From a virus (Duplodnaviria > Caudoviricetes): a stretch of DNA of 51,010 nucleotides. The translations under genes were made by a program, and so were the position numbers. The stretch spans positions 1-51,010 of the IMG/VR virus record IMGVR_UViG_3300042922_000517; one strand, written 5' to 3'. Positions 19,655 through 48,438 of the stretch are shown piece after piece (within the stretch, counting starts at the first letter, position 1; every line of letters starts with the position of its first letter). The notes beneath the pieces were generated by a model. The model had not been told where the DNA came from. It worked only from the letters and a program-made list of their open reading frames with translations, and did no database searches.

Positions 19655-19728
19655 TACTCCCTGCTGGAATCGAACCAGCGACCAAACGCATATAAGACGT
19701 CTGCTCTACCTATCTGAGCTAAAGGAGC
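19655..19728 (-). tRNA. tRNA-Ile, anticodon UAU
   Basis: Acceptor GCTCCTT/AGGGAGT+A; D arm GCTC/GAGC; anticodon arm GACGT-CT-TAT-AT-GCGTT; T arm GCTGG-TTCGATT-CCAGC; no encoded CCA. Confidence 0.9.
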
Positions 19729-36652: not shown

Positions 36653-37300
36653 GTGCGGATTGTGGAAGAGAAGAATCTGAAAGAAATATTCTCAGTAAAT
36701 ATACTCTTATTAAGAAAAAGTAAGAATATGACTCAAGGTGATCTTGCCGATGTTTTAGGGGTCGGTATTTCCACTGTATCGGATTGGGAAAAGGGAAAAA
36801 AGTATCCTAGATCTGGCGCCACCGAAAAAATATCGGAATACTTCAATGTTTCTAAGAGCAGGTTGTTCGAAGAAGCTAAGAGTGTTAGTGATTTGTATGA
36901 AGATGCTAACGAGATTTCTGCACTTCCGATCGTAGGGGGAATATCATGCGGGAATGGAACGATTGCGTACGAGAACATTGATGGATATGAAGACACGCCT
37001 AAGTCATGGGTCCGTGGTGGAGAATTCTTTTATCTTAGAGCTTCTGGTGATAGTATGATCAATGCGAGAATATTTGACGGAGATCTCCTATTAATTCGTA
37101 AACAAGAATATGTAGAAGATGGCGAAATTGCTGCCGTTCTTATTGATGATGAGGTATTTCTAAAAAGAGTATACAAGAATGATGATACTTTAATTCTACA
37201 GTCAGAAAACCCTACATATCCTCAAATTACAAAAACCGCTTCTGATCATCAAAACATAAGAGTGATTGGAAAATTGAAAAGAATTATCATCAAACTTTAA
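36653..37300 (+). CDS. cI: CI-like repressor (XRE HTH + S24 autopeptidase)
   Basis: HTH; ISCG cleavage-site region; GDSM catalytic Ser; LKR catalytic Lys. Confidence 0.93.
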   Translation: MRIVEEKNLKEIFSVNILLLRKSKNMTQGDLADVLGVGISTVSDWEKGKKYPRSGATEKISEYFNVSKSRLFEEAKSVSDLYEDANEISALPIVGGISCGNGTIAYENIDGYEDTPKSWVRGGEFFYLRASGDSMINARIFDGDLLLIRKQEYVEDGEIAAVLIDDEVFLKRVYKNDDTLILQSENPTYPQITKTASDHQNIRVIGKLKRIIIKL

Positions 37301-37306
37301 ATAGAG

Positions 37307-38740
37307 GTGAGCATTTTGACTGTCGCCATATACATTAGGGTTTCGACAGATGAACAAGCAGAACAAGGCTATTCAATCGATTTTCAAAAAGAAAAGCTAA
37401 TCCATTATTGCAAATCGCAGGACTGGGACGACTACAAATTATACATAGACGATGGATATACAGGAACTAACATGGAAAGACCAGCTTTAAAACGTATGCT
37501 CCGGCATATAAAAGAAAAAAGGGTAACAGCCGTATTGGTCTACAAGTTAGATAGATTGAGTCGGAGGCAACGTGACATTTTAGAGCTTATTGAAGACGAA
37601 TTCGAAAAAAACGGAGCTTCTTTCACTTCTTCTGTTGAAAAAATCGACACTTCTACTGCTTTCGGCAAAGCTATGCTTGGTGTTTTAGCGGTTTTCGCAC
37701 AATTGGATAGGGATATGATTATCGAACGGACTACTGCCGGCAGGCGGCAAAGGGTTAGCCAGGGTAAATGGTATGGAGGGCGTATACCTTTTGGATATAG
37801 TTGGAACAGGGAATTACAGCAATTAGAAATAATACCAGAAGAAGCTCGCATAATTCGAGAATCATATAGATTATATCTAAATGGTCACTCGCGGTTGTCT
37901 ATTGCCGAATGGGCTGCTCCTCGCTGTCTTAGCAGGACAATAGATCATTCTGTAATCAGGGACATTCTTTCAAGACAAATTTATACTGGGAATCTTGGGT
38001 ATGTCGGGAATATCTATGAAGGAAAACATGAAGCCATCATTGATCAGGCTACATGGGATGCGGTTCAGATTGAGTTAGAAAAAAGAAAGGATGGAGCCAC
38101 CCCGATAGGAGTATACTTGTTAACTGGATTACTCCAATGCGGAGTATGTGGCGGAAATGTAGTCCATGTAAGAAGGAAATCAAAACATAAAAATAAGGAA
38201 TATGTCTATGAATTCTATGGATGTAAAGATCAACATGTAAGGCCAAAAGATAGAAGAGCCGGAAAAGCCTGTACAATGGGTTATATTAGGAGAGACGAAG
38301 TTGAAAAGTTTGTGATTTCAAAAATAAAGGATATCTCCTTAGACCCTACAAAAATAACTAATATGTTGAAAAACAAAAAAGGCGAAGTTTCTGATTTAAA
38401 TGAACAAGTCATGCAATTGAACGATTCACTTAAAAAAGTAAATACAAATCTCGAAAATCTATATGATGCAATTCAGAATGGAGACATTAAGGCTTCAGCT
38501 GTAAGTGATAGAATTAAAAACCTCGAATTACAAAGAGATAGACTCGAAGAAGATCTGGATGATATTTTAGACATTAACCCCAAAGCAATTGACGAAAAGA
38601 AAACACAAAAACTATTCCACGATATAGGAACTGCATGGGAATTTTTCACTGAGGACGAACAAAAGATAGCTGTCCGGAAGTTGGTAAAATCCATTTCTCT
38701 TATCAAAGGTACCCCACCAGAAATTGAATGGTTCTTCTAA
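37307..38740 (+). CDS. int: Large serine integrase
   Basis: YIRVST catalytic Ser, DRLSR, recombinase domain, CGVCG zinc ribbon, coiled coil. Confidence 0.96.
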   Translation: MSILTVAIYIRVSTDEQAEQGYSIDFQKEKLIHYCKSQDWDDYKLYIDDGYTGTNMERPALKRMLRHIKEKRVTAVLVYKLDRLSRRQRDILELIEDEFEKNGASFTSSVEKIDTSTAFGKAMLGVLAVFAQLDRDMIIERTTAGRRQRVSQGKWYGGRIPFGYSWNRELQQLEIIPEEARIIRESYRLYLNGHSRLSIAEWAAPRCLSRTIDHSVIRDILSRQIYTGNLGYVGNIYEGKHEAIIDQATWDAVQIELEKRKDGATPIGVYLLTGLLQCGVCGGNVVHVRRKSKHKNKEYVYEFYGCKDQHVRPKDRRAGKACTMGYIRRDEVEKFVISKIKDISLDPTKITNMLKNKKGEVSDLNEQVMQLNDSLKKVNTNLENLYDAIQNGDIKASAVSDRIKNLELQRDRLEEDLDDILDINPKAIDEKKTQKLFHDIGTAWEFFTEDEQKIAVRKLVKSISLIKGTPPEIEWFF

Positions 38741-39213: not shown

Positions 39214-39627
39214 TTAAGGGCTTGTCGGCCAGGACAGGCCCTTAAACAATTTTATTCCATTGCTATTTACTGTTGGAATAGCAGGGTTACCTTCACGGAA
39301 TGATCTATACCCAGAGCTAGACATAGTACAACTCTTTGTCTCTTTTTCAATATTTTCATCAAAATACGCTAGTTTGAATTCCTTATCTACAACTTTTATT
39401 TTATCTACGTTTGCCAACACTCCTCTATCTACCCTCATAAAATTCAATCCGGCCTTTTCAAATGCAGCCTCCCAAAATCTTAAGGGTCCAACGGCAACAT
39501 ATTGTTTTTCTTCGGTGTGAACTGCAATTGATAGTCTATTGTCAAATTGCATATATAAGATATCCTCGACTTTTATTTGCTGAATACCCTTGCCTTCTTC
39601 ATTTTCAGTAACTGTTAAATAGATCAT
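39214..39627 (-). CDS. Stand-alone LytTR DNA-binding protein (no receiver domain)
   Basis: EDILYMQ..VHT..FMRVDRGVLANVDKI; GGGGAG RBS supports start at 39627. Confidence 0.85.
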   Translation of the reverse strand: MIYLTVTENEEGKGIQQIKVEDILYMQFDNRLSIAVHTEEKQYVAVGPLRFWEAAFEKAGLNFMRVDRGVLANVDKIKVVDKEFKLAYFDENIEKETKSCTMSSSGYRSFREGNPAIPTVNSNGIKLFKGLSWPTSP

Positions 39628-39744
39628 ATAACCACTCCCCATCACTTTTCTTCTGTTCCCCCTTATTAATGCCGGCAATATAATCGTGTGTTATAATTCT
39701 ATCGAGATCACCTTCTTAACTTAATTTTAATAATTGGAGGTATT

Positions 39745-40221: not shown

Positions 40222-40602
40222 CTATGCCAAACTTGTTTTTTTCTGAATTACACTGTACTTTTCCTTCGCTTTTTCAAAGTTAATATTTGTGAAGGTGCAC
40301 CGCTTCGAAGTGTGAGTTATATTTTCTTCGAAATACGCTATATGATACATTTCATCCAAAACAACTATCCTATCTAAATTAACGACATTTGTTCGATCAA
40401 CAGCAACAAAATTATATCCATTACTGTCTAACCCATTTTGCCAGTATTTTAGAGTGCCTGTTAAGAAAAATGAGGAATCAACCGTATGAACTATAACCCT
40501 ATCAATTCTACGTTCAAATTCCATGAAAGCAACCTCTTTTATAGGTAAAGAGATGAGACCGCTCTCAGCGTTAATATCTTTACTTACCACTAAGCTGTCC
40601 AC
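40222..40602 (-). CDS. Stand-alone LytTR DNA-binding protein (no receiver domain)
   Basis: KEVAFME..VIVHT..GTLKYW..FVAVDRTNVVNLDRI; paralog of 39214..39627. Confidence 0.85.
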   Translation of the reverse strand: MDSLVVSKDINAESGLISLPIKEVAFMEFERRIDRVIVHTVDSSFFLTGTLKYWQNGLDSNGYNFVAVDRTNVVNLDRIVVLDEMYHIAYFEENITHTSKRCTFTNINFEKAKEKYSVIQKKTSLA

Positions 40603-40617
40603 TTATACCATCTCCAT

Positions 40618-40734
40618 CTATTTCAGAAGTTCTTTAGGAGCATCTCCGCCATAAATGAACAATGCGCTCGCTGGAGTAACGGTCAGTAGGGCTACGAATG
40701 CCAGAGCAGAAGAAATCATATTCCATTTTTTCAT
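40618..40734 (-). CDS. agrD: AgrD-like cyclic lactone autoinducer precursor, 38 aa (not in ORF track)
   Basis: MKKWNMISSALAFVALLTVTPASALFIYGGDAPKELLK; AGGAGG RBS inside the agrB 3' end; amphipathic leader, Ser-led core and PKELLK tail. Confidence 0.88.
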   Translation of the reverse strand: MKKWNMISSALAFVALLTVTPASALFIYGGDAPKELLK

Positions 40735-40735
40735 A

Positions 40736-41260
40736 TTAGTCTTTCACCTCCTTTCGTGGAATTAAAGTCAGGGACTGTACCAGGAAGCAAGCAGCTATTA
40801 CTGCCGATCCAACTATGAGGTTCAGCGATATCAGCATTACCGAGGCTACTTTTAAATGTGGGTAATACTTCTTCGGTATTCGTGACTGATTAGCAATTCC
40901 GGACGGTGCGAACAACAATGCCAATAAGATACTGATTATAGTGAATATAGAAGTTAACAAGTGATTCACATTTACATATGAAAGGCCCACAAATAATGTA
41001 GTTGTAACGACCACACACATATCTCCCGTTTTCAAATGAAATCCACCCGATATCATTCGAAGTAATGCAAATGACGCCATAATAATTATTACTTCTTTCG
41101 TGTGTCCGGTTAACACGCCCCCGATAACCGTAAGAACAATAATGGACACCGTATTTATCAAAACAGCTAATGCATGCTTAAGCACAGCCAATGAGGCAGG
41201 GTGCTCCGGGGCTCTATTCTTCACAGCAACCGCCATTTTAAGCGATATCTGATCTATCAC
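40736..41260 (-). CDS. agrB: AgrB-family peptide-processing membrane protein
   Basis: LRMISGGFH..C catalytic motif, FAP, multiple TM helices, QSLTL end. Confidence 0.93.
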   Translation of the reverse strand: MIDQISLKMAVAVKNRAPEHPASLAVLKHALAVLINTVSIIVLTVIGGVLTGHTKEVIIIMASFALLRMISGGFHLKTGDMCVVVTTTLFVGLSYVNVNHLLTSIFTIISILLALLFAPSGIANQSRIPKKYYPHLKVASVMLISLNLIVGSAVIAACFLVQSLTLIPRKEVKD

Positions 41261-41880
41261 ATATCTCTCTCCTTTTTTATAGCATATCTAAGGAAAATTA
41301 ATAATGAAGCTACAAAGAAGATAAGAGCTATCCAAATTTCATTCACATAAAGAATAAACGTAATGGCAATTAAAAATAGAATGATAGTCGCAAGTATTAT
41401 GATAAGCTCATATTTCAATCTGAATTTTTCTAAATCAAATGAAAAACCATAGCCGAATTTATACAAAATCATTGAAATAGGTACAACAAAAACCGTAGTA
41501 GATGTTTGAAGTATGTACCCGTATGTAATATTAGACTGGGCAACATCAATAGATCCGAAGAGCAGAATAGCCAACATTGCCTGGACCATACCAAAACCAA
41601 CTAACCCCACGATTGACATCATAAATGAGCCTATCAACGATATCTTTACTACAGCTGCATACAACAGGGTGAAAAAGAGTACGTTAATTAATGGAGCTAG
41701 GTATGCAAGAGACAACTCATTCCGCAAAATGAAACTTTGTAAATTCATGAGCAAAATTACAAATAGCGCTTCCCAAAAGTAGTCCATTATTTTAAATCTG
41801 AAAACACTCATACTTAACGCATACCAGGCGAAAACTTCTAATGTTGAAAAAAATACAAACCCAATCGGCTCTAACGACAC
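41257..41880 (-). CDS. Polytopic membrane protein resembling an AgrC sensor domain, with no kinase domain
   Basis: About 7 TM segments; ends right after the last TM with its stop overlapping the agrB start; likely GTG start at 41880 after AGGCGG. Confidence 0.7.
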   Translation of the reverse strand: MSLEPIGFVFFSTLEVFAWYALSMSVFRFKIMDYFWEALFVILLMNLQSFILRNELSLAYLAPLINVLFFTLLYAAVVKISLIGSFMMSIVGLVGFGMVQAMLAILLFGSIDVAQSNITYGYILQTSTTVFVVPISMILYKFGYGFSFDLEKFRLKYELIIILATIILFLIAITFILYVNEIWIALIFFVASLLIFLRYAIKKERDM

Positions 41881-42000
41881 AAAACAACACCGCCTGACAT
41901 AATTTTCATTCAATAGATTAATTATAGTTGTTTATACCTATCTGAGTATACTAAAATATGCATTTATAGAGTACGGTCAGGCGGCTTGTTACGCGATCAT

Positions 42001-42246
42001 TCACACATCGATTTCTTCCCATCCGGGAGGCAGTTCATCTTCGGCAACCGGCTCCAGAGATTCTGCCTCAATCATGACCAGTAAGATATTCCCGATGTCT
42101 ACCGATGCCCCTTTGATGACCTTCTTATTATCCAGTGACTTTGTCTCCCCGACAGCAACGACATTACCCACCCGGCCGCCGTAGCCGCTGGGATGACCCT
42201 CGCTGATCCGGACCGGCAGCCCCACATGTAAATCCTCTAATCTCAT
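42001..42246 (-). CDS. Hypothetical protein (KOW/SH3-like)
   Basis: Likely start MRLEDLHVG overlapping the previous stop. Confidence 0.6.
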   Translation of the reverse strand: MRLEDLHVGLPVRISEGHPSGYGGRVGNVVAVGETKSLDNKKVIKGASVDIGNILLVMIEAESLEPVAEDELPPGWEEIDV

Positions 42247-42485
42247 TGCATGACCACCTTTCCGGTGCGCCGCAGCCAATCCATTTTTGCGGTAATATCT
42301 GCCTCCCACTTCACATCTTTTGTTTTTCTCGCTTCAATTAATTGGTTGTTGAAGAAATTCATGTCCAGGCAGTAATCGGCATTCACTTTCATACAATGCT
42401 GCAGTTCCATACCCAAGTCATCCGATAATGGACCTTTCAAATGCTCTTGAAAGATTTCGGCAAGTCTATTGTGTACTGGCAACAT
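42243..42485 (-). CDS. Hypothetical protein
   Basis: AGGAGTG RBS before MLPVHNRLAE. Confidence 0.65.
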   Translation of the reverse strand: MLPVHNRLAEIFQEHLKGPLSDDLGMELQHCMKVNADYCLDMNFFNNQLIEARKTKDVKWEADITAKMDWLRRTGKVVMQ

Positions 42486-42536
42486 ATCTATCACTCCTAT
42501 ACATGCGAGGGCGCGCGCTGCCCTCTAATGGCGGTT

Positions 42537-42621
42537 TCCGCGACCATCCCGGCATAATTGTCCGGTAGGTTTCGACCAGGCCCGCAGCCGGTCCAAGGCG
42601 CTTATGCGCTCATCAGGCGGA
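42537..42621 (-). ncRNA. Type I hammerhead ribozyme with core insertion
   Basis: UCCGC-CUGAUGA-[GCGC AUAA GCGC CUUG]-GACC..GGUC-GAAA-CC..GG-UC^GCGGA; all core nucleotides and stems I-III present; intergenic, on the sense strand. Confidence 0.8.
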
Positions 42622-42626
42622 TTAAG

Positions 42627-42842
42627 TTACCCTGCTATCAGGTCCTTCACGGACATTGTTTTAGCTTTCCCGTATTCGCATTTTTCGAGAATGTGGATAG
42701 CATTCACAAGGGCTTTACACGTTCCGTATGACGGGCAAACGGACAGTTTCTTGTAGCCACCCTTGCCGTTCTTCCATTCCCTCCGAAGCATATCCAGTTC
42801 CGGAGAGAGAAATTGACTCAGGGCATTGATTGCGTGATCCAT
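42627..42842 (-). CDS. Hypothetical protein
   Basis: Coupled ORF; CPSYGTC. Confidence 0.6.
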   Translation of the reverse strand: MDHAINALSQFLSPELDMLRREWKNGKGGYKKLSVCPSYGTCKALVNAIHILEKCEYGKAKTMSVKDLIAG

Positions 42843-42843
42843 G

Positions 42844-43038
42844 TCATTCCCCCGTTTCTTTAAACGTTTCTAGTGCCCCTAAAATGATTTCAATATCTCG
42901 GAGCTTCTTGAAAGGTGATCCGTCACCAGTGACGACTGCTTTGATTAGCCCGACTGCCGCAGGATAACGATACCGTTCGCCTTCCACGGCTATTTGTGCT
43001 GCTCTGCGCCTAACTTCTTCACGATCCATTTTCCGCAT
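42844..43038 (-). CDS. Hypothetical protein
   Basis: AAGGAGG RBS. Confidence 0.65.
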   Translation of the reverse strand: MRKMDREEVRRRAAQIAVEGERYRYPAAVGLIKAVVTGDGSPFKKLRDIEIILGALETFKETGE

Positions 43039-43068
43039 TTCCTCCTTTAGAGGGGCCGTAGCCCCGTG

Positions 43069-43248
43069 TTATTTAACGATAAGAGCATCGCAGCAACGAA
43101 TCTGATGATTCACTCCATTCCGTTCAAGCTGAAAGTATGTTCTTGGACGATCTTTGTCGCGTTCAACTTCAAACACTTCCCCGAGGTATTGTCCGTACCA
43201 CCAAACCATTGCTTCCTTCGGCAACTCGTTCTTAATTTTCACTTTCAT
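43069..43248 (-). CDS. 59-aa hypothetical protein (not in ORF track)
   Basis: GGGAGG RBS; MKVKIKNELPKEAMVWWYGQYLGEVFEVE..DALIVK. Confidence 0.6.
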   Translation of the reverse strand: MKVKIKNELPKEAMVWWYGQYLGEVFEVERDKDRPRTYFQLERNGVNHQIRCCDALIVK

Positions 43249-43461: not shown

Positions 43462-43531
43462 CTTATTAAATATCGTTATTTGGTTATTTCGTTATTTACA
43501 ATATACTCCTGCCTTCCATGATTGTCAACAC

Positions 43532-45420: not shown

Positions 45421-45774
45421 TTATTGTACTGGATTTTGTGACTTAAGATAGGCTGCCTCAATGGCTGCCCGGATCTCCGCAGGCGTGACCTTGATTCCCT
45501 TGCGCCCTAACTGCTGAGTGGCATACTCCAAGGCTTGCGCAAGTTTGATCTGACTTTCGGAGCTTTTATAAACCGTCTCTGCATAGGCATAAGCCTCACC
45601 GGCCACCTTGTGCAGCAGCTCCCGCTGTGTCGCGTCCAACTTACTATCCAGATAATTAACAGCCTTTGCCTTGACAACGCCTACAGCAGACAACAGGACG
45701 GCAACCAGGGCACCTACGAGGGCCGTTACAACAGTCGTCACATACGGCTGAGCCGCTTCTACAATCGGTTGCAT
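45421..45774 (-). CDS. Holin (LL-H type)
   Basis: One N-terminal TM; AYAYAE..KLAQAL..IRAAIEAA; follows the endolysin. Confidence 0.8.
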   Translation of the reverse strand: MQPIVEAAQPYVTTVVTALVGALVAVLLSAVGVVKAKAVNYLDSKLDATQRELLHKVAGEAYAYAETVYKSSESQIKLAQALEYATQQLGRKGIKVTPAEIRAAIEAAYLKSQNPVQ

Positions 45775-46523
45775 TATTTAGTCTCCTTTGTCGTCAATGT
45801 AGCTGTCTTACTGATATTGTTCCATTCAACTTGCGCGCCAATTGCTTCGCCAATCGCAGCCAGCGGCACATATACCCGTCCTTCAATGAGCACACTCTCT
45901 GCTGCCAGCCGGTTACCGTTTACTACTGTGCCTGCTTTATCTACTCTCACGTCATTTGCCTCCTTCAGATACCGTTCGATTTGTGCCAGAACCTTTGCCG
46001 TCTGTGTCTCTGTGGGCTGCGCTCCCGCCTGCAACTGCTTAATCGATAGGCCAAATGTCATTTCAAAGTGCGGGCCGTCAAAGATGCTCTCAAAGTCACC
46101 ACCCCAGAAGAACCCCAGCGCCTTTGCTTCCTCCACCACTTCATTCCAATCCTTCACCTTGTCGCCGTCACCGTCCCGGAGCATGTCCCAGGACACACTT
46201 GAACCGTTTGGTAGCAGCAGCGCAAAATCGATGGCAAGTCCGTAATTATGATTGCTCGAGCCGCCGATTGCATTCGTAACCCATTTTTCCTTTGGTTGCG
46301 CCTTAACATGTGAGAGACCAACAGCATTTAGTTGTTCCTGCGTCCGGCTTTTTGCGTATAAGGCGTTCTGTTCGGCCTTGGTGCGTAGCCCCTGCGTGAT
46401 TACAATCGGCACGCCCCGGGAATAAGACCGTTCAATAAGCGCATTCGTAGCTGCCAGTACTGCCGGTTGTAATCCGACTAGTCGGGACTTTGATTTGAGT
46501 TTCACCTGATCAAGCGTTAGCAT
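45774..46523 (-). CDS. Endolysin: M15 L-Ala-D-Glu peptidase with C-terminal copper-amine-oxidase-N-like domain
   Basis: ITQGLRT, SNHNYGLAIDF, WGGDF and DGPHFE motifs; C-terminal GRVYVPL..IGAQVEWNN. Confidence 0.92.
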   Translation of the reverse strand: MLTLDQVKLKSKSRLVGLQPAVLAATNALIERSYSRGVPIVITQGLRTKAEQNALYAKSRTQEQLNAVGLSHVKAQPKEKWVTNAIGGSSNHNYGLAIDFALLLPNGSSVSWDMLRDGDGDKVKDWNEVVEEAKALGFFWGGDFESIFDGPHFEMTFGLSIKQLQAGAQPTETQTAKVLAQIERYLKEANDVRVDKAGTVVNGNRLAAESVLIEGRVYVPLAAIGEAIGAQVEWNNISKTATLTTKETK

Positions 46524-47445: not shown

Positions 47446-48438
47446 TTATTGTACTAAATACCGTTTGTGTTGTTCCCGCTTACGTTCTTCGGTAATTCTG
47501 GCATACCGGAGTGTGGTCTGCGGATCCGAATGGCCCATAAGTTCCTGCACAGCGACCAACTCCGCGCCATTATTAAGCGTGAGCGTTGCAAAGGTGTGCC
47601 GCAGCACATGCGGGCTCACCTTGTCCTGAAGCCCAGCTGTACGGGCAATAACGGCTATCTCCCGCTGTATGCCCCGTTTGGTCAGGCGGCGATACTCCTT
47701 GCGCTCTGTCACCATCAGAGCCCCGCAGTTATCATTCCGGCTCTTCAGATATTTGTTGAGGTGGTACATTGCTTTGAACGAAAAGTAAACCTCCCGCTCC
47801 TTATTCCCCTTACCGATCACTCGACAACTCATAGATTGTTGATTGATTGCGTCCCGGTCCATCCCGTAGACCTCAGACAGCCGGCAGCCTGTTGCATACA
47901 TGATTTCGATAAAGGCCCGCTGCCGGACCGTCTTGCAGGATTCCCGCAGCATCTCCAACTCAGGGATTGTCAGAGCTTTCGGCAGCCGCTTCTCCAGCTT
48001 CGGCGTTTTTAGCTTGGCGGATGGGTCACGGGGAATAATCTCCTCCCCTGAAAGCCAGCCGAAGAAGCTTTTAAGTACGGACAACTTCTTGCCGATCGTA
48101 CTCATCTTGAGGTGATTGAATTGTCCAAGGTATGCCCGTATATCGGCGGCTGTGACGTTGTCTGTCCGCTTGCGAACGTGACGGAAGAATATGTGTAGGT
48201 CCAAGGCATATCCGTCCAGCGTCAACGGACTGAGCCCTTCCAGGCGCTTTGATGATAGAAACATCTTGAGCTTCTCTTCGCCATCCGGGTGCGGTTCATC
48301 TTCTTTGATACGCTGAATATGGTAATCAGACACAATGATAGATAGTATAGACTTTGTTCGTTCAACTTCTAAATCAGGGAAAACGTTATAAATCACGGCC
48401 ACGACATCGGACAATAGCTGCTCACTTGCATTATTCAT
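47446..48438 (-). CDS. XerC/D-like tyrosine recombinase
   Basis: SAM-like N-terminal domain; complete catalytic set TGCRLSE, GKGNKER, HVLRH, GHS, TLRY. Confidence 0.95.
   Translation of the reverse strand: MNNASEQLLSDVVAVIYNVFPDLEVERTKSILSIIVSDYHIQRIKEDEPHPDGEEKLKMFLSSKRLEGLSPLTLDGYALDLHIFFRHVRKRTDNVTAADIRAYLGQFNHLKMSTIGKKLSVLKSFFGWLSGEEIIPRDPSAKLKTPKLEKRLPKALTIPELEMLRESCKTVRQRAFIEIMYATGCRLSEVYGMDRDAINQQSMSCRVIGKGNKEREVYFSFKAMYHLNKYLKSRNDNCGALMVTERKEYRRLTKRGIQREIAVIARTAGLQDKVSPHVLRHTFATLTLNNGAELVAVQELMGHSDPQTTLRYARITEERKREQHKRYLVQ

Follow-up and report, generated by a model that had tools for sequence, protein, structure and literature searches.

The hammerhead is the best-studied small ribozyme, and the A9/G10.1 step of its core is a textbook metal-binding and stacking element, the region of the A9 phosphate and the N7 of G10.1 being a known metal site. 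Can this step be interrupted by an entire hairpin in a natural ribozyme? The question is raised by a locus in the viral DNA analysed here (the window, that is the whole stretch of 51,010 nt, to which all coordinates given without a locus name refer), where a first-pass annotation had proposed a minus-strand hammerhead with an extra hairpin in its core. As an empirical rule of the known alignments (Eckert et al. 2023), CUGANGA directly adjoins stem II, with 1-2 extra nucleotides at most; here 16 nt intervene, and it is because these nucleotides separate CUGAUGA from stem II that the element is set apart from ordinary hammerheads.

Architecture of the element

Read base for base on the minus strand, 42621..42537 gives stem I, CUGAUGA, a 12-nt hairpin followed by CUUG, stem II, GAAA, stem III, GUC and the closing strand of stem I. 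The coordinates and the list of helices in the first-pass annotation, cleavage site included, all prove correct on this reading. The features are as follows (A1 is the alignment of type I sequences described below).

42617..42621, minus strand: stem I 5' strand, UCCGC, which pairs with 42541-42537; 3 of 5 pairs are double-changed in A1, with 98.5% of cells paired (a percentage inflated by the way the set was picked, see below)
42610..42616, minus strand: core C3-A9, CUGAUGA; invariant in A1, U7 being C in the relative L167
42598..42609, minus strand: extra hairpin (hp1), GCGC-AUAA-GCGC, between A9 and G10.1; without counterpart in canonical siblings
42594..42597, minus strand: linker CUUG, which joins hp1 to stem II; CUUG in 31 of 39 variants
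42574..42593, minus strand: stem II (hp2), GACCGGC-UGCGG-GCCUGGUC, with loop UGCGG; aligns with stem II of the canonical siblings
42570..42573, minus strand: core G12 A13 A14 A15.1, GAAA; invariant in A1
42543..42570, minus strand: stem III hairpin, ACC/GGU plus a CCGG/CCGG extension, ending in U16.1 (42543); ACC/GGU invariant in 13 of 13 type I sequences
42541..42542, minus strand: predicted cleavage site between C17 (42542) and G1.1 (42541), placed from the hammerhead consensus
42537..42541, minus strand: stem I 3' strand, GCGGA, from the reading and the A1 pairs
42531..42534, minus strand: 3' tail CCGC, preceded by AA; candidate partner of the loop II GCGG (42585-42582) and also complementary to the stem I 3' strand

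All positions of the conserved hammerhead core are present, namely C3 U4 G5 A6 N7 G8 A9 (42616-42610), G12 A13 A14 (within 42573-42570), the A15.1-U16.1 pair (42570/42543) and a non-G at H17 (42542). Around this core lie the three helices I, II and III, with covariation support from A1, from the type III alignment A2 and from RNAalifold. After GAAA, stem III reads CC-UA-CCGG-ACAAUUAUG-CCGG-GAU-GG-U to 42543, and its inner part varies in length among the 13 type I members. Pistol, twister-sister and hatchet identities were considered and rejected, since a full hammerhead core and direct hammerhead homologs are present.

The MFE fold of 42537-42621 alone is the hammerhead secondary structure, and this fold is recovered by both RNAalifold and single-sequence MFE prediction without the structure being given. 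The energy is ordinary for the composition (z = -1.32; 21 of 200 shuffles of 42537-42621 fold as well), and with flanks included a GCGG/CCGC hairpin replaces stem I. Since the single-sequence energy is ordinary, one sequence proves nothing and the case for a hammerhead rests on the relatives.

Recurrence of the hairpin and linker

An upstream ORF of 93% identity led to one relative (L001), in which the ribozyme is kept while the downstream protein has diverged; it differs from the window in the hp1 loop, in the stem III loop and by a register shift in stem II. A search of viral contigs for related loci with the downstream protein found none, and blastn against phage records matched nothing in the ribozyme, the only match being the 40 nt at 43036-43075. 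These are 95% identical to 28 Paenibacillus larvae phage records, where they lie under a hypothetical protein, and in the window they overlap a hairpin, GGGGCCGTAGCCCC, at 43052-43065.

The first pattern scan gave three loci, two of which (L002 and L004) are chance matches inside coding sequence. An earlier scan with GCGC..GCGC fixed gave 8 real loci of 46, the other 38 being chance matches such as one conserved coding stretch found in L009, L012, L024, L025, L028, L032 and L043. The loci L003/L005, from an unrelated 102-kb phage, were the first sign of the insert in a type III hammerhead. In the pattern scans CUGAUGA, GAAA, the first 4 bp of stem II and part of the linker were fixed and nothing else; since the patterns imposed them, the invariance of CUGAUGA, GAAA and these four pairs within the pattern-derived set carries no weight as evidence. 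The module of hp1 and linker was found in 11 of 11 viral loci, 9 of them with a complete hammerhead, in 10 of 40 genome loci (six in Desulfosporosinus, one in Gracilibacter, one each in Paenibacillus typhae and Paenibacillus sp. P25 and one in a Cytophagales MAG) and in 22 of 54 metagenome loci. The remaining 30 loci of the genome scan are chance, and 32 of the metagenome scan are not complete variants.

To count as complete, a hammerhead needed U16.1, any base but G at position 17 and a minimum of 4 bp in stem I and 3 bp in stem III; hp1 was scored as present with at least 3 bp directly after A9. The 86 distinct pattern matches divide into 44 with hp1 and a complete hammerhead, 10 with hp1 only, 2 complete only and 30 with neither, so that the two features, neither of which is part of the patterns, co-occur (Fisher p = 2.8e-12). 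By eye, two of the 44 (L062 and L090) are marginal chance completions; L075 and L081 are likewise treated as chance, and L119 is cut by the contig start and not completable. Once chance and identical copies are removed, there are 39 distinct complete insert-bearing variants, 13 of type I and 26 of type III, from Paenibacillus, Desulfosporosinus, Gracilibacter, the Cytophagales MAG, viral contigs and metagenomes. The module is found, then, in two circular permutations, in Bacillota, a Bacteroidota MAG and many uncultured phages.

Among these 39 variants hp1 measures 10-15 nt, contains 3-6 bp and falls into 15 different stem types, for example GCGC/GCGC, GCCC/GGGC, GUCC/GGAC, GCCGCA/UGCGGC, GGGC/GCCC, GAGC/GCUC, GUGC/GCAC and GCGU/ACGC. 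The linker consensus is Y..G, mostly CUUG, with its U and final G partly set by the search patterns; the eight variants with other linkers have CUCG, UUCG, CUUUG, CUUCG or CAUCG, and CAUG and CUAUG occur in members found by model and not by pattern. H17 is C in 34 variants, U in 4 and A in 1. Two pattern-found relatives, L038 and L053, have a poor or broken stem I. From these sequence comparisons, the insert-bearing hammerhead looks like an overlooked natural form of the classic ribozyme.

Covariation of the helices

Two alignments were examined, A1 with the 13 type I sequences and A2 with the 26 type III sequences (MAFFT; mean column identity 62%). In A2 85.5% of cells are paired, versus 63.7 ± 1.2% in shuffled alignments and 30-49% with partners slid, and in A1 93.2%, versus 86.4 ± 0.9% and 29-41%, respectively, the paired fractions of both sets being inflated because the script that picked the sequences required pairing. 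The covariation score is 0.515 versus 0.163 in A2 and 0.257 versus 0.136 in A1, each reached by none of 500 shuffles, counts that are not probabilities since the sequences of each alignment are related. Three A2 sequences, L003, L076 and L112, are in part misaligned, and they weigh against the structure. Double-changed pairs amount to 6 of 6 in stem I, 5 of 6 in hp1 and 4 of 6 in stem III in A2, and to ten pairs in A1, where the stem II pairs beyond the first four covary as well. The three core pairs of stem III are invariant in type I and variable in type III. The first-pass annotation had named a lack of stem covariation in homologs among the findings that would count against it; stems I and III and hp1 do covary across A1 and A2.

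In one of the type III contigs (L112, with its insert-bearing hammerhead at 232-308), the F. prausnitzii HDV-like ribozyme model (RF02682) scores 31.1 bits about 300 nt away, at 606-671 on the minus strand. This score is below the gathering value of 44, and the match may represent another ribozyme on that contig.

Detection by covariance models

Model R2 was built from A4, six type I sequences outside the lineage of the window, with the window and six close relatives excluded. Against both strands of the window's 51,010 nt it gives a single hit, at 42525-42623 on the minus strand (88.7 bits, E = 3.1e-28). Judged by this homology, the window hammerhead is not a product of chance.

The hammerhead models of Rfam 15, which the first-pass annotation had pointed to as a check, find no match in the window at gathering score, nor at E ≤ 10 in 42400-42760. 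The same models also miss the canonical insert-free siblings L153, L154 and L156-L159 at E ≤ 1. Because canonical siblings are missed too, the failure is not due to the insert alone and says little, the search being uninformative for this lineage; the canonical type I lineage of Paenibacillaceae as a whole is unannotated by standard models. For three type III variants, Rfam Hammerhead_3 aligns the core at 19-21.5 bits, below its gathering score of 48.5, and these alignments place the insert in a long loop of stem II.

Canonical siblings and the indel at A9/G10.1

Within the genus to which Paenibacillus sp. P25 belongs, model R1, built from A1, matches 13 of 28 genomes; across the family the figure is 26 of 136. 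The ten alignments among the matches listed are ordinary type I hammerheads, none with hp1, which share all three stems, the GCGG loop and the CCGC tail with the insert-bearing form; the lengths of the lower-scoring matches (72-87 nt) suggest that these are also without hp1. The layout of the siblings is CUGAYGA, sometimes one U, GGCCCG..GCGG..CGGGCC, GAAA, CCUACCGG..CCGGGAUGGUC, GCGGA and a tail with UCCGC. These accepted hammerheads align with the insert-bearing element over the whole length except the insert. L167 and the canonical L153 are near-identical except for an indel of 15-16 nt between A9 and G10.1. Because the siblings differ by an indel at this very step, hp2 is the homolog of stem II, and hp1 with the linker is a discrete module. 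The insert-free siblings, together with the covarying hp1 and stems I and III, support the original proposal of a type I hammerhead with an extra core hairpin between A9 and stem II. On these grounds of homology the window element is a real hammerhead, confirmed as a member of the family, and it belongs to a group of prophage hammerheads common in Paenibacillaceae.

Five insert-bearing members were newly found by model. Two are clean, L167 (CUGACGA, linker CAUG) and L169 (linker CUAUG), and the remaining L168, L170 and L182 are imperfect or degenerate. Canonical copies also decay (L154, L155 and L165). In L155 (1501-1610), a canonical sibling, an apparent insert at A9/G10.1 was rejected, as it is a tandem triplication of CUGACGAUGGC that forms no hairpin; the same copy has a duplicated GGUC before stem I, and the repeats look like replication slippage inside the ribozyme. 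In L156 (1-86, 1501-1580 and 2153-2182) CRISPR-DR2 repeats about 2 kb apart flank a canonical sibling hammerhead, a layout that may reflect a mobile element inserted into or beside a CRISPR array. Additionally, contig 25 of genome G017 has two sibling hammerheads (L153 and L165) about 1.1 kb apart, one of them with the core variant CCGACGA, an arrangement that by analogy recalls the hammerhead clusters flanking prophage genes.

Candidate pseudoknot and alternative pairings

The type III variants pair loop I (..AUGCU) with loop II (AGCAU), and the two covary, AGCA/UGCU being replaced by AGUA/UACU or GGCA/UGCC; 70% of the pseudoknot cells in A2 are paired and 4 of 5 pairs are double-changed. In type I, the loop II and tail sequences are GCGG/CCGC in the Paenibacillus members and UGGG/CCCA in Desulfosporosinus and Gracilibacter, with 81% of cells paired and zero double changes in A1 (MAFFT). 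The 4-bp complementarity of loop II and tail is not above chance when compared with shuffles, 714 of 1000 tail shuffles giving a run of at least 4, and shuffled tails yield runs of 4-5 bp as a matter of course. In the cited part of Perreault et al. 2011 (PMC3088659), mutation and rescue show a stem I-II pseudoknot to be required for fast cleavage at 0.5 mM Mg2+, and about 40% of hammerheads are estimated to use one. The loop II pseudoknot of the first-pass annotation is consistent with the relatives and with these published pseudoknots, but the type I sequences offer it neither a compensatory change nor significant complementarity; for type I the loop II/tail pseudoknot is a candidate that we regard as likely. 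Judged by eye, the tail of most type I members, L072 excepted, also shows complementarity to the 3' strand of stem I.

Both MFE and RNAalifold pair the two U's of the linker CUUG (42594-42597) with A13 and A14 (42571-42572). This predicted pairing would compete with the active core, and covariation is silent on it, A13 and A14 being invariant. In its predicted fold, the 3' product opens with GCGG-AAA-CCGC as a 5' hairpin, and AGGAG is left free downstream. The earlier suggestion that the tail forms such a hairpin after cleavage agrees with this predicted fold and stands as a possibility.

Phage and gene context

The window is a temperate phage, with an endolysin at 45774-46523 and a CI-like repressor at 36653-37300, and its host is soil Paenibacillus-like. 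The record holds two integrases, a serine integrase at 37307-38740 (plus strand) and a tyrosine integrase at 47446-48438 (minus strand), as well as a tRNA gene at 19655-19728 (minus strand, 62 bits), which is the sole Rfam match of the window at gathering score. Among the sequencing runs listed as containing the stretch there is no RNA run; four are DNA runs, three from soil metagenomes and one, with a small share, from a food metagenome. The ribozyme sits in a leftward block of small ORFs, among these features:

43500..43528, minus strand: promoter-like TTGACA-17-TATATT, by consensus match only (11 of 12 positions)
42627..42842, minus strand: upstream ORF of 71 aa; stop codon TAA at 42629-42627, 5 nt before the ribozyme
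42507..42525, minus strand: conserved hairpin GAGGGC-AGCGCGC-GCCCUC in the 5' UTR of the downstream gene (RNAalifold, 7 relatives)
42243..42485, minus strand: downstream gene DUF7667 (PF24704; phrog_13817); ATG at 42485, RBS AGGAG at 42498-42494

The promoter-like site, a strong one by consensus, could start the ribozyme-bearing transcript, and a consensus scan found no terminator-like sites on the minus strand down to 39000. No Pfam or PHROG family matched the 71-aa upstream ORF. The 5' UTR hairpin shows one compensatory pair among the 7 relatives (GAGAGC/GCUCUC in L051; RNAalifold). The distance of about 55 nt from the cleavage site to the ATG at 42485 had been given correctly, the gene in question being DUF7667, and the agr-like genes placed further downstream on the same strand are there as well, with AgrB and LytTR proteins. 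The minus-strand order is DUF7667, an 81-aa ORF, a membrane protein, AgrB, a 38-aa peptide gene and two LytTR proteins. This agr-like set (40222-41913 and 39214-39678, minus strand) includes the 218-aa membrane protein (phrog_15604), AgrB (PF04647), the peptide gene, which is AgrD-like, and the two LytTR-only proteins, which lack a receiver domain; the stretch showed no histidine kinase.

In 7 of 7 members of the window lineage, a DUF7667-homologous ORF starts 50-53 nt after stem I, and in a PHROGs scan of four of them, the window included, all match phrog_13817. The upstream gene differs among these members. Since the ribozyme and the DUF7667 gene are always adjacent in the lineage while the upstream gene differs, the two move as a unit. 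Type III variants lie 13-29 nt before diverse phage genes.

Proposed mechanism and alternatives

Taken together, the sequence evidence makes it probable that the window element is a functional type I hammerhead with a discrete 16-nt module, a 4-bp hairpin plus CUUG, between A9 and G10.1. As the module sits at this step, its junction with stem II is a second three-way junction. During leftward transcription, the 2'-OH of C17 (42542) would attack the phosphate to G42541, G12 (42573) serving as general base and G8 (42611), through its 2'-OH, as general acid, roles assigned from established hammerhead chemistry. The products would be an upstream RNA with a 2',3'-cyclic phosphate end and a downstream RNA with a 5'-OH. 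The hairpin hp2 would keep the role of stem II, the GCGG/CCGC contact with the 3' tail would hold stems I and II parallel, and hp1 would project from the junction, whose linkers measure 0, 4 and 0 nt and in which the Y..G ends of the linker could close a small turn. Cleavage would leave the upstream ORFs and the DUF7667/agr-like region on separate RNAs. The tail would afterwards fold back on GCGG, with the 5'-OH inside a terminal hairpin, and the DUF7667 mRNA would start with this hairpin and the second conserved hairpin before the RBS; together they may set the 5' end of the mRNA and probably its stability. From glmS work in Bacillus, 5'-OH ends are reportedly attacked by RNase J1, and terminal hairpins protect RNA 5' ends.

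An arrangement with the helices swapped, in which hp1 stacks on the core as the working stem II, preserving the A9/G10.1 step, and hp2 is an accessory pseudoknot arm, has some appeal. The two hairpins both open with G and close with C, A9 runs straight into hp1 and hp2 straight into G12, and junction linkers of 0, 4 and 0 nt would allow either hairpin on the G.A pairs. However, it is hp2 and not hp1 that matches the sibling stem II in sequence, length, loop GCGG and pseudoknot partner, and the loops of hp1 are not conserved; we consider the swap unlikely, if worth keeping in view. The module might alternatively be a control device, either through binding of a phage or host factor by hp1 and linker or through pairing of the linker with A13/A14, so that cleavage is switched and not constitutive. 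The predicted pairing of the two linker U's with A13 and A14, the alternative pairing of the tail with loop II or the stem I 3' strand, and the retention of the module in two circular permutations would all suit such a device. Nevertheless, the hp1 loops vary freely in sequence and length and thus offer no conserved pocket, and the U-A pairs are broken in several members, which have C next to the G of the linker or A at its position 2, so that control by the module appears decidedly improbable.

A bleaker reading starts from the site itself: because this region is a known metal site, an insert there might cripple the ribozyme, and the element would persist as an inert structured UTR element or a decaying relic. 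Besides the sensitive position of the insert, the degenerate model-found copies and the broken stem I of L038 and L053 would be in keeping with lost catalysis. Stems I and III and H17, on the other hand, lie outside all search patterns and serve the hammerhead fold only, yet they are kept, and covary, across 39 sequences; decay, moreover, also affects canonical copies. A dead ribozyme is hardly to be expected on this balance, and an active type I hammerhead that accommodates the module is the reading we carry forward.

Implications and comparison with known hammerheads

If insert-bearing hammerheads are active as a class, the most conserved strand of the hammerhead core is interruptible in nature, and the module either rebuilds or replaces the A9/G10.1 environment or makes cleavage conditional. 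A recurrent covarying hairpin at this step would mean that the core tolerates, or exploits, a second junction, contradicting the working assumption behind the enumeration of possible hammerhead permutations. An entire group of phage ribozymes would be escaping Rfam models and descriptor searches. Siblings that are near-identical except for the insert, L167 and L153 for example, are natural controls for the effect of the module on rate, Mg2+ dependence and folding. For phage biology, the element would be a predicted processing site ahead of the conserved accessory gene DUF7667 and upstream of a phage-borne agr-like module.

How does the element relate to hammerheads already described? The first-pass remark that insertions between A9 and G10.1 are tolerated holds, in the cited part of PMC4209133, only for single nucleotides, and in the cited part of Eckert et al. 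2023 (PMC10085705) no insertions of more than 1-2 nt are known at the position. Some canonical siblings also bear a single U there. Hammerheads with a single-nucleotide insertion, in the part of that literature cited, have the insertion point in common with the present set, but one unpaired nucleotide is a different matter from a module of 15-20 nt with its own covarying helix. We found no published description of a hairpin insert at A9/G10.1 in the open-access literature; subscription journals and the supplementary alignments of Perreault 2011 and Weinberg 2015 may differ. In this context, the evidence from sequence leaves us evenly poised on the broader proposal that hammerheads with an A9/G10.1 hairpin and a Y..G linker form an undescribed, widespread and catalytically active "four-helix" subclass in phages of several phyla, spanning types I and III.

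The prophage type I hammerheads of Perreault et al. 2011 (PMC3088659) are, in the part of the paper cited, similar to the window element in the core, the three stems, the intergenic prophage setting and the pairing of the stem II loop with the stem I side. The core variants described in that part (A6a, U13a, 2a/2b) and the weak stems include no hairpin at A9/G10.1, unlike the 16-nt insert of the window. The pseudoknot hammerhead of PDB 8YDC (Zhan et al. 2024, PMC11300833), which that paper credits to Weinberg et al. 2015, likewise adds a further stem-loop (helix IV) and a pseudoknot to the core. As presented in the cited part of that paper, however, the pseudoknot replaces helix II and the extra stem-loop is on helix I, whereas the window element keeps stem II and has its hairpin between A9 and stem II. 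Finally, the non-circularly permuted types SGC and CSG, in the part of Eckert et al. 2023 (PMC10085705) cited here, also break the connectivity rules and are also missed by standard models, but they rearrange intact blocks, unlike the elements described here, in which a hairpin is inserted.
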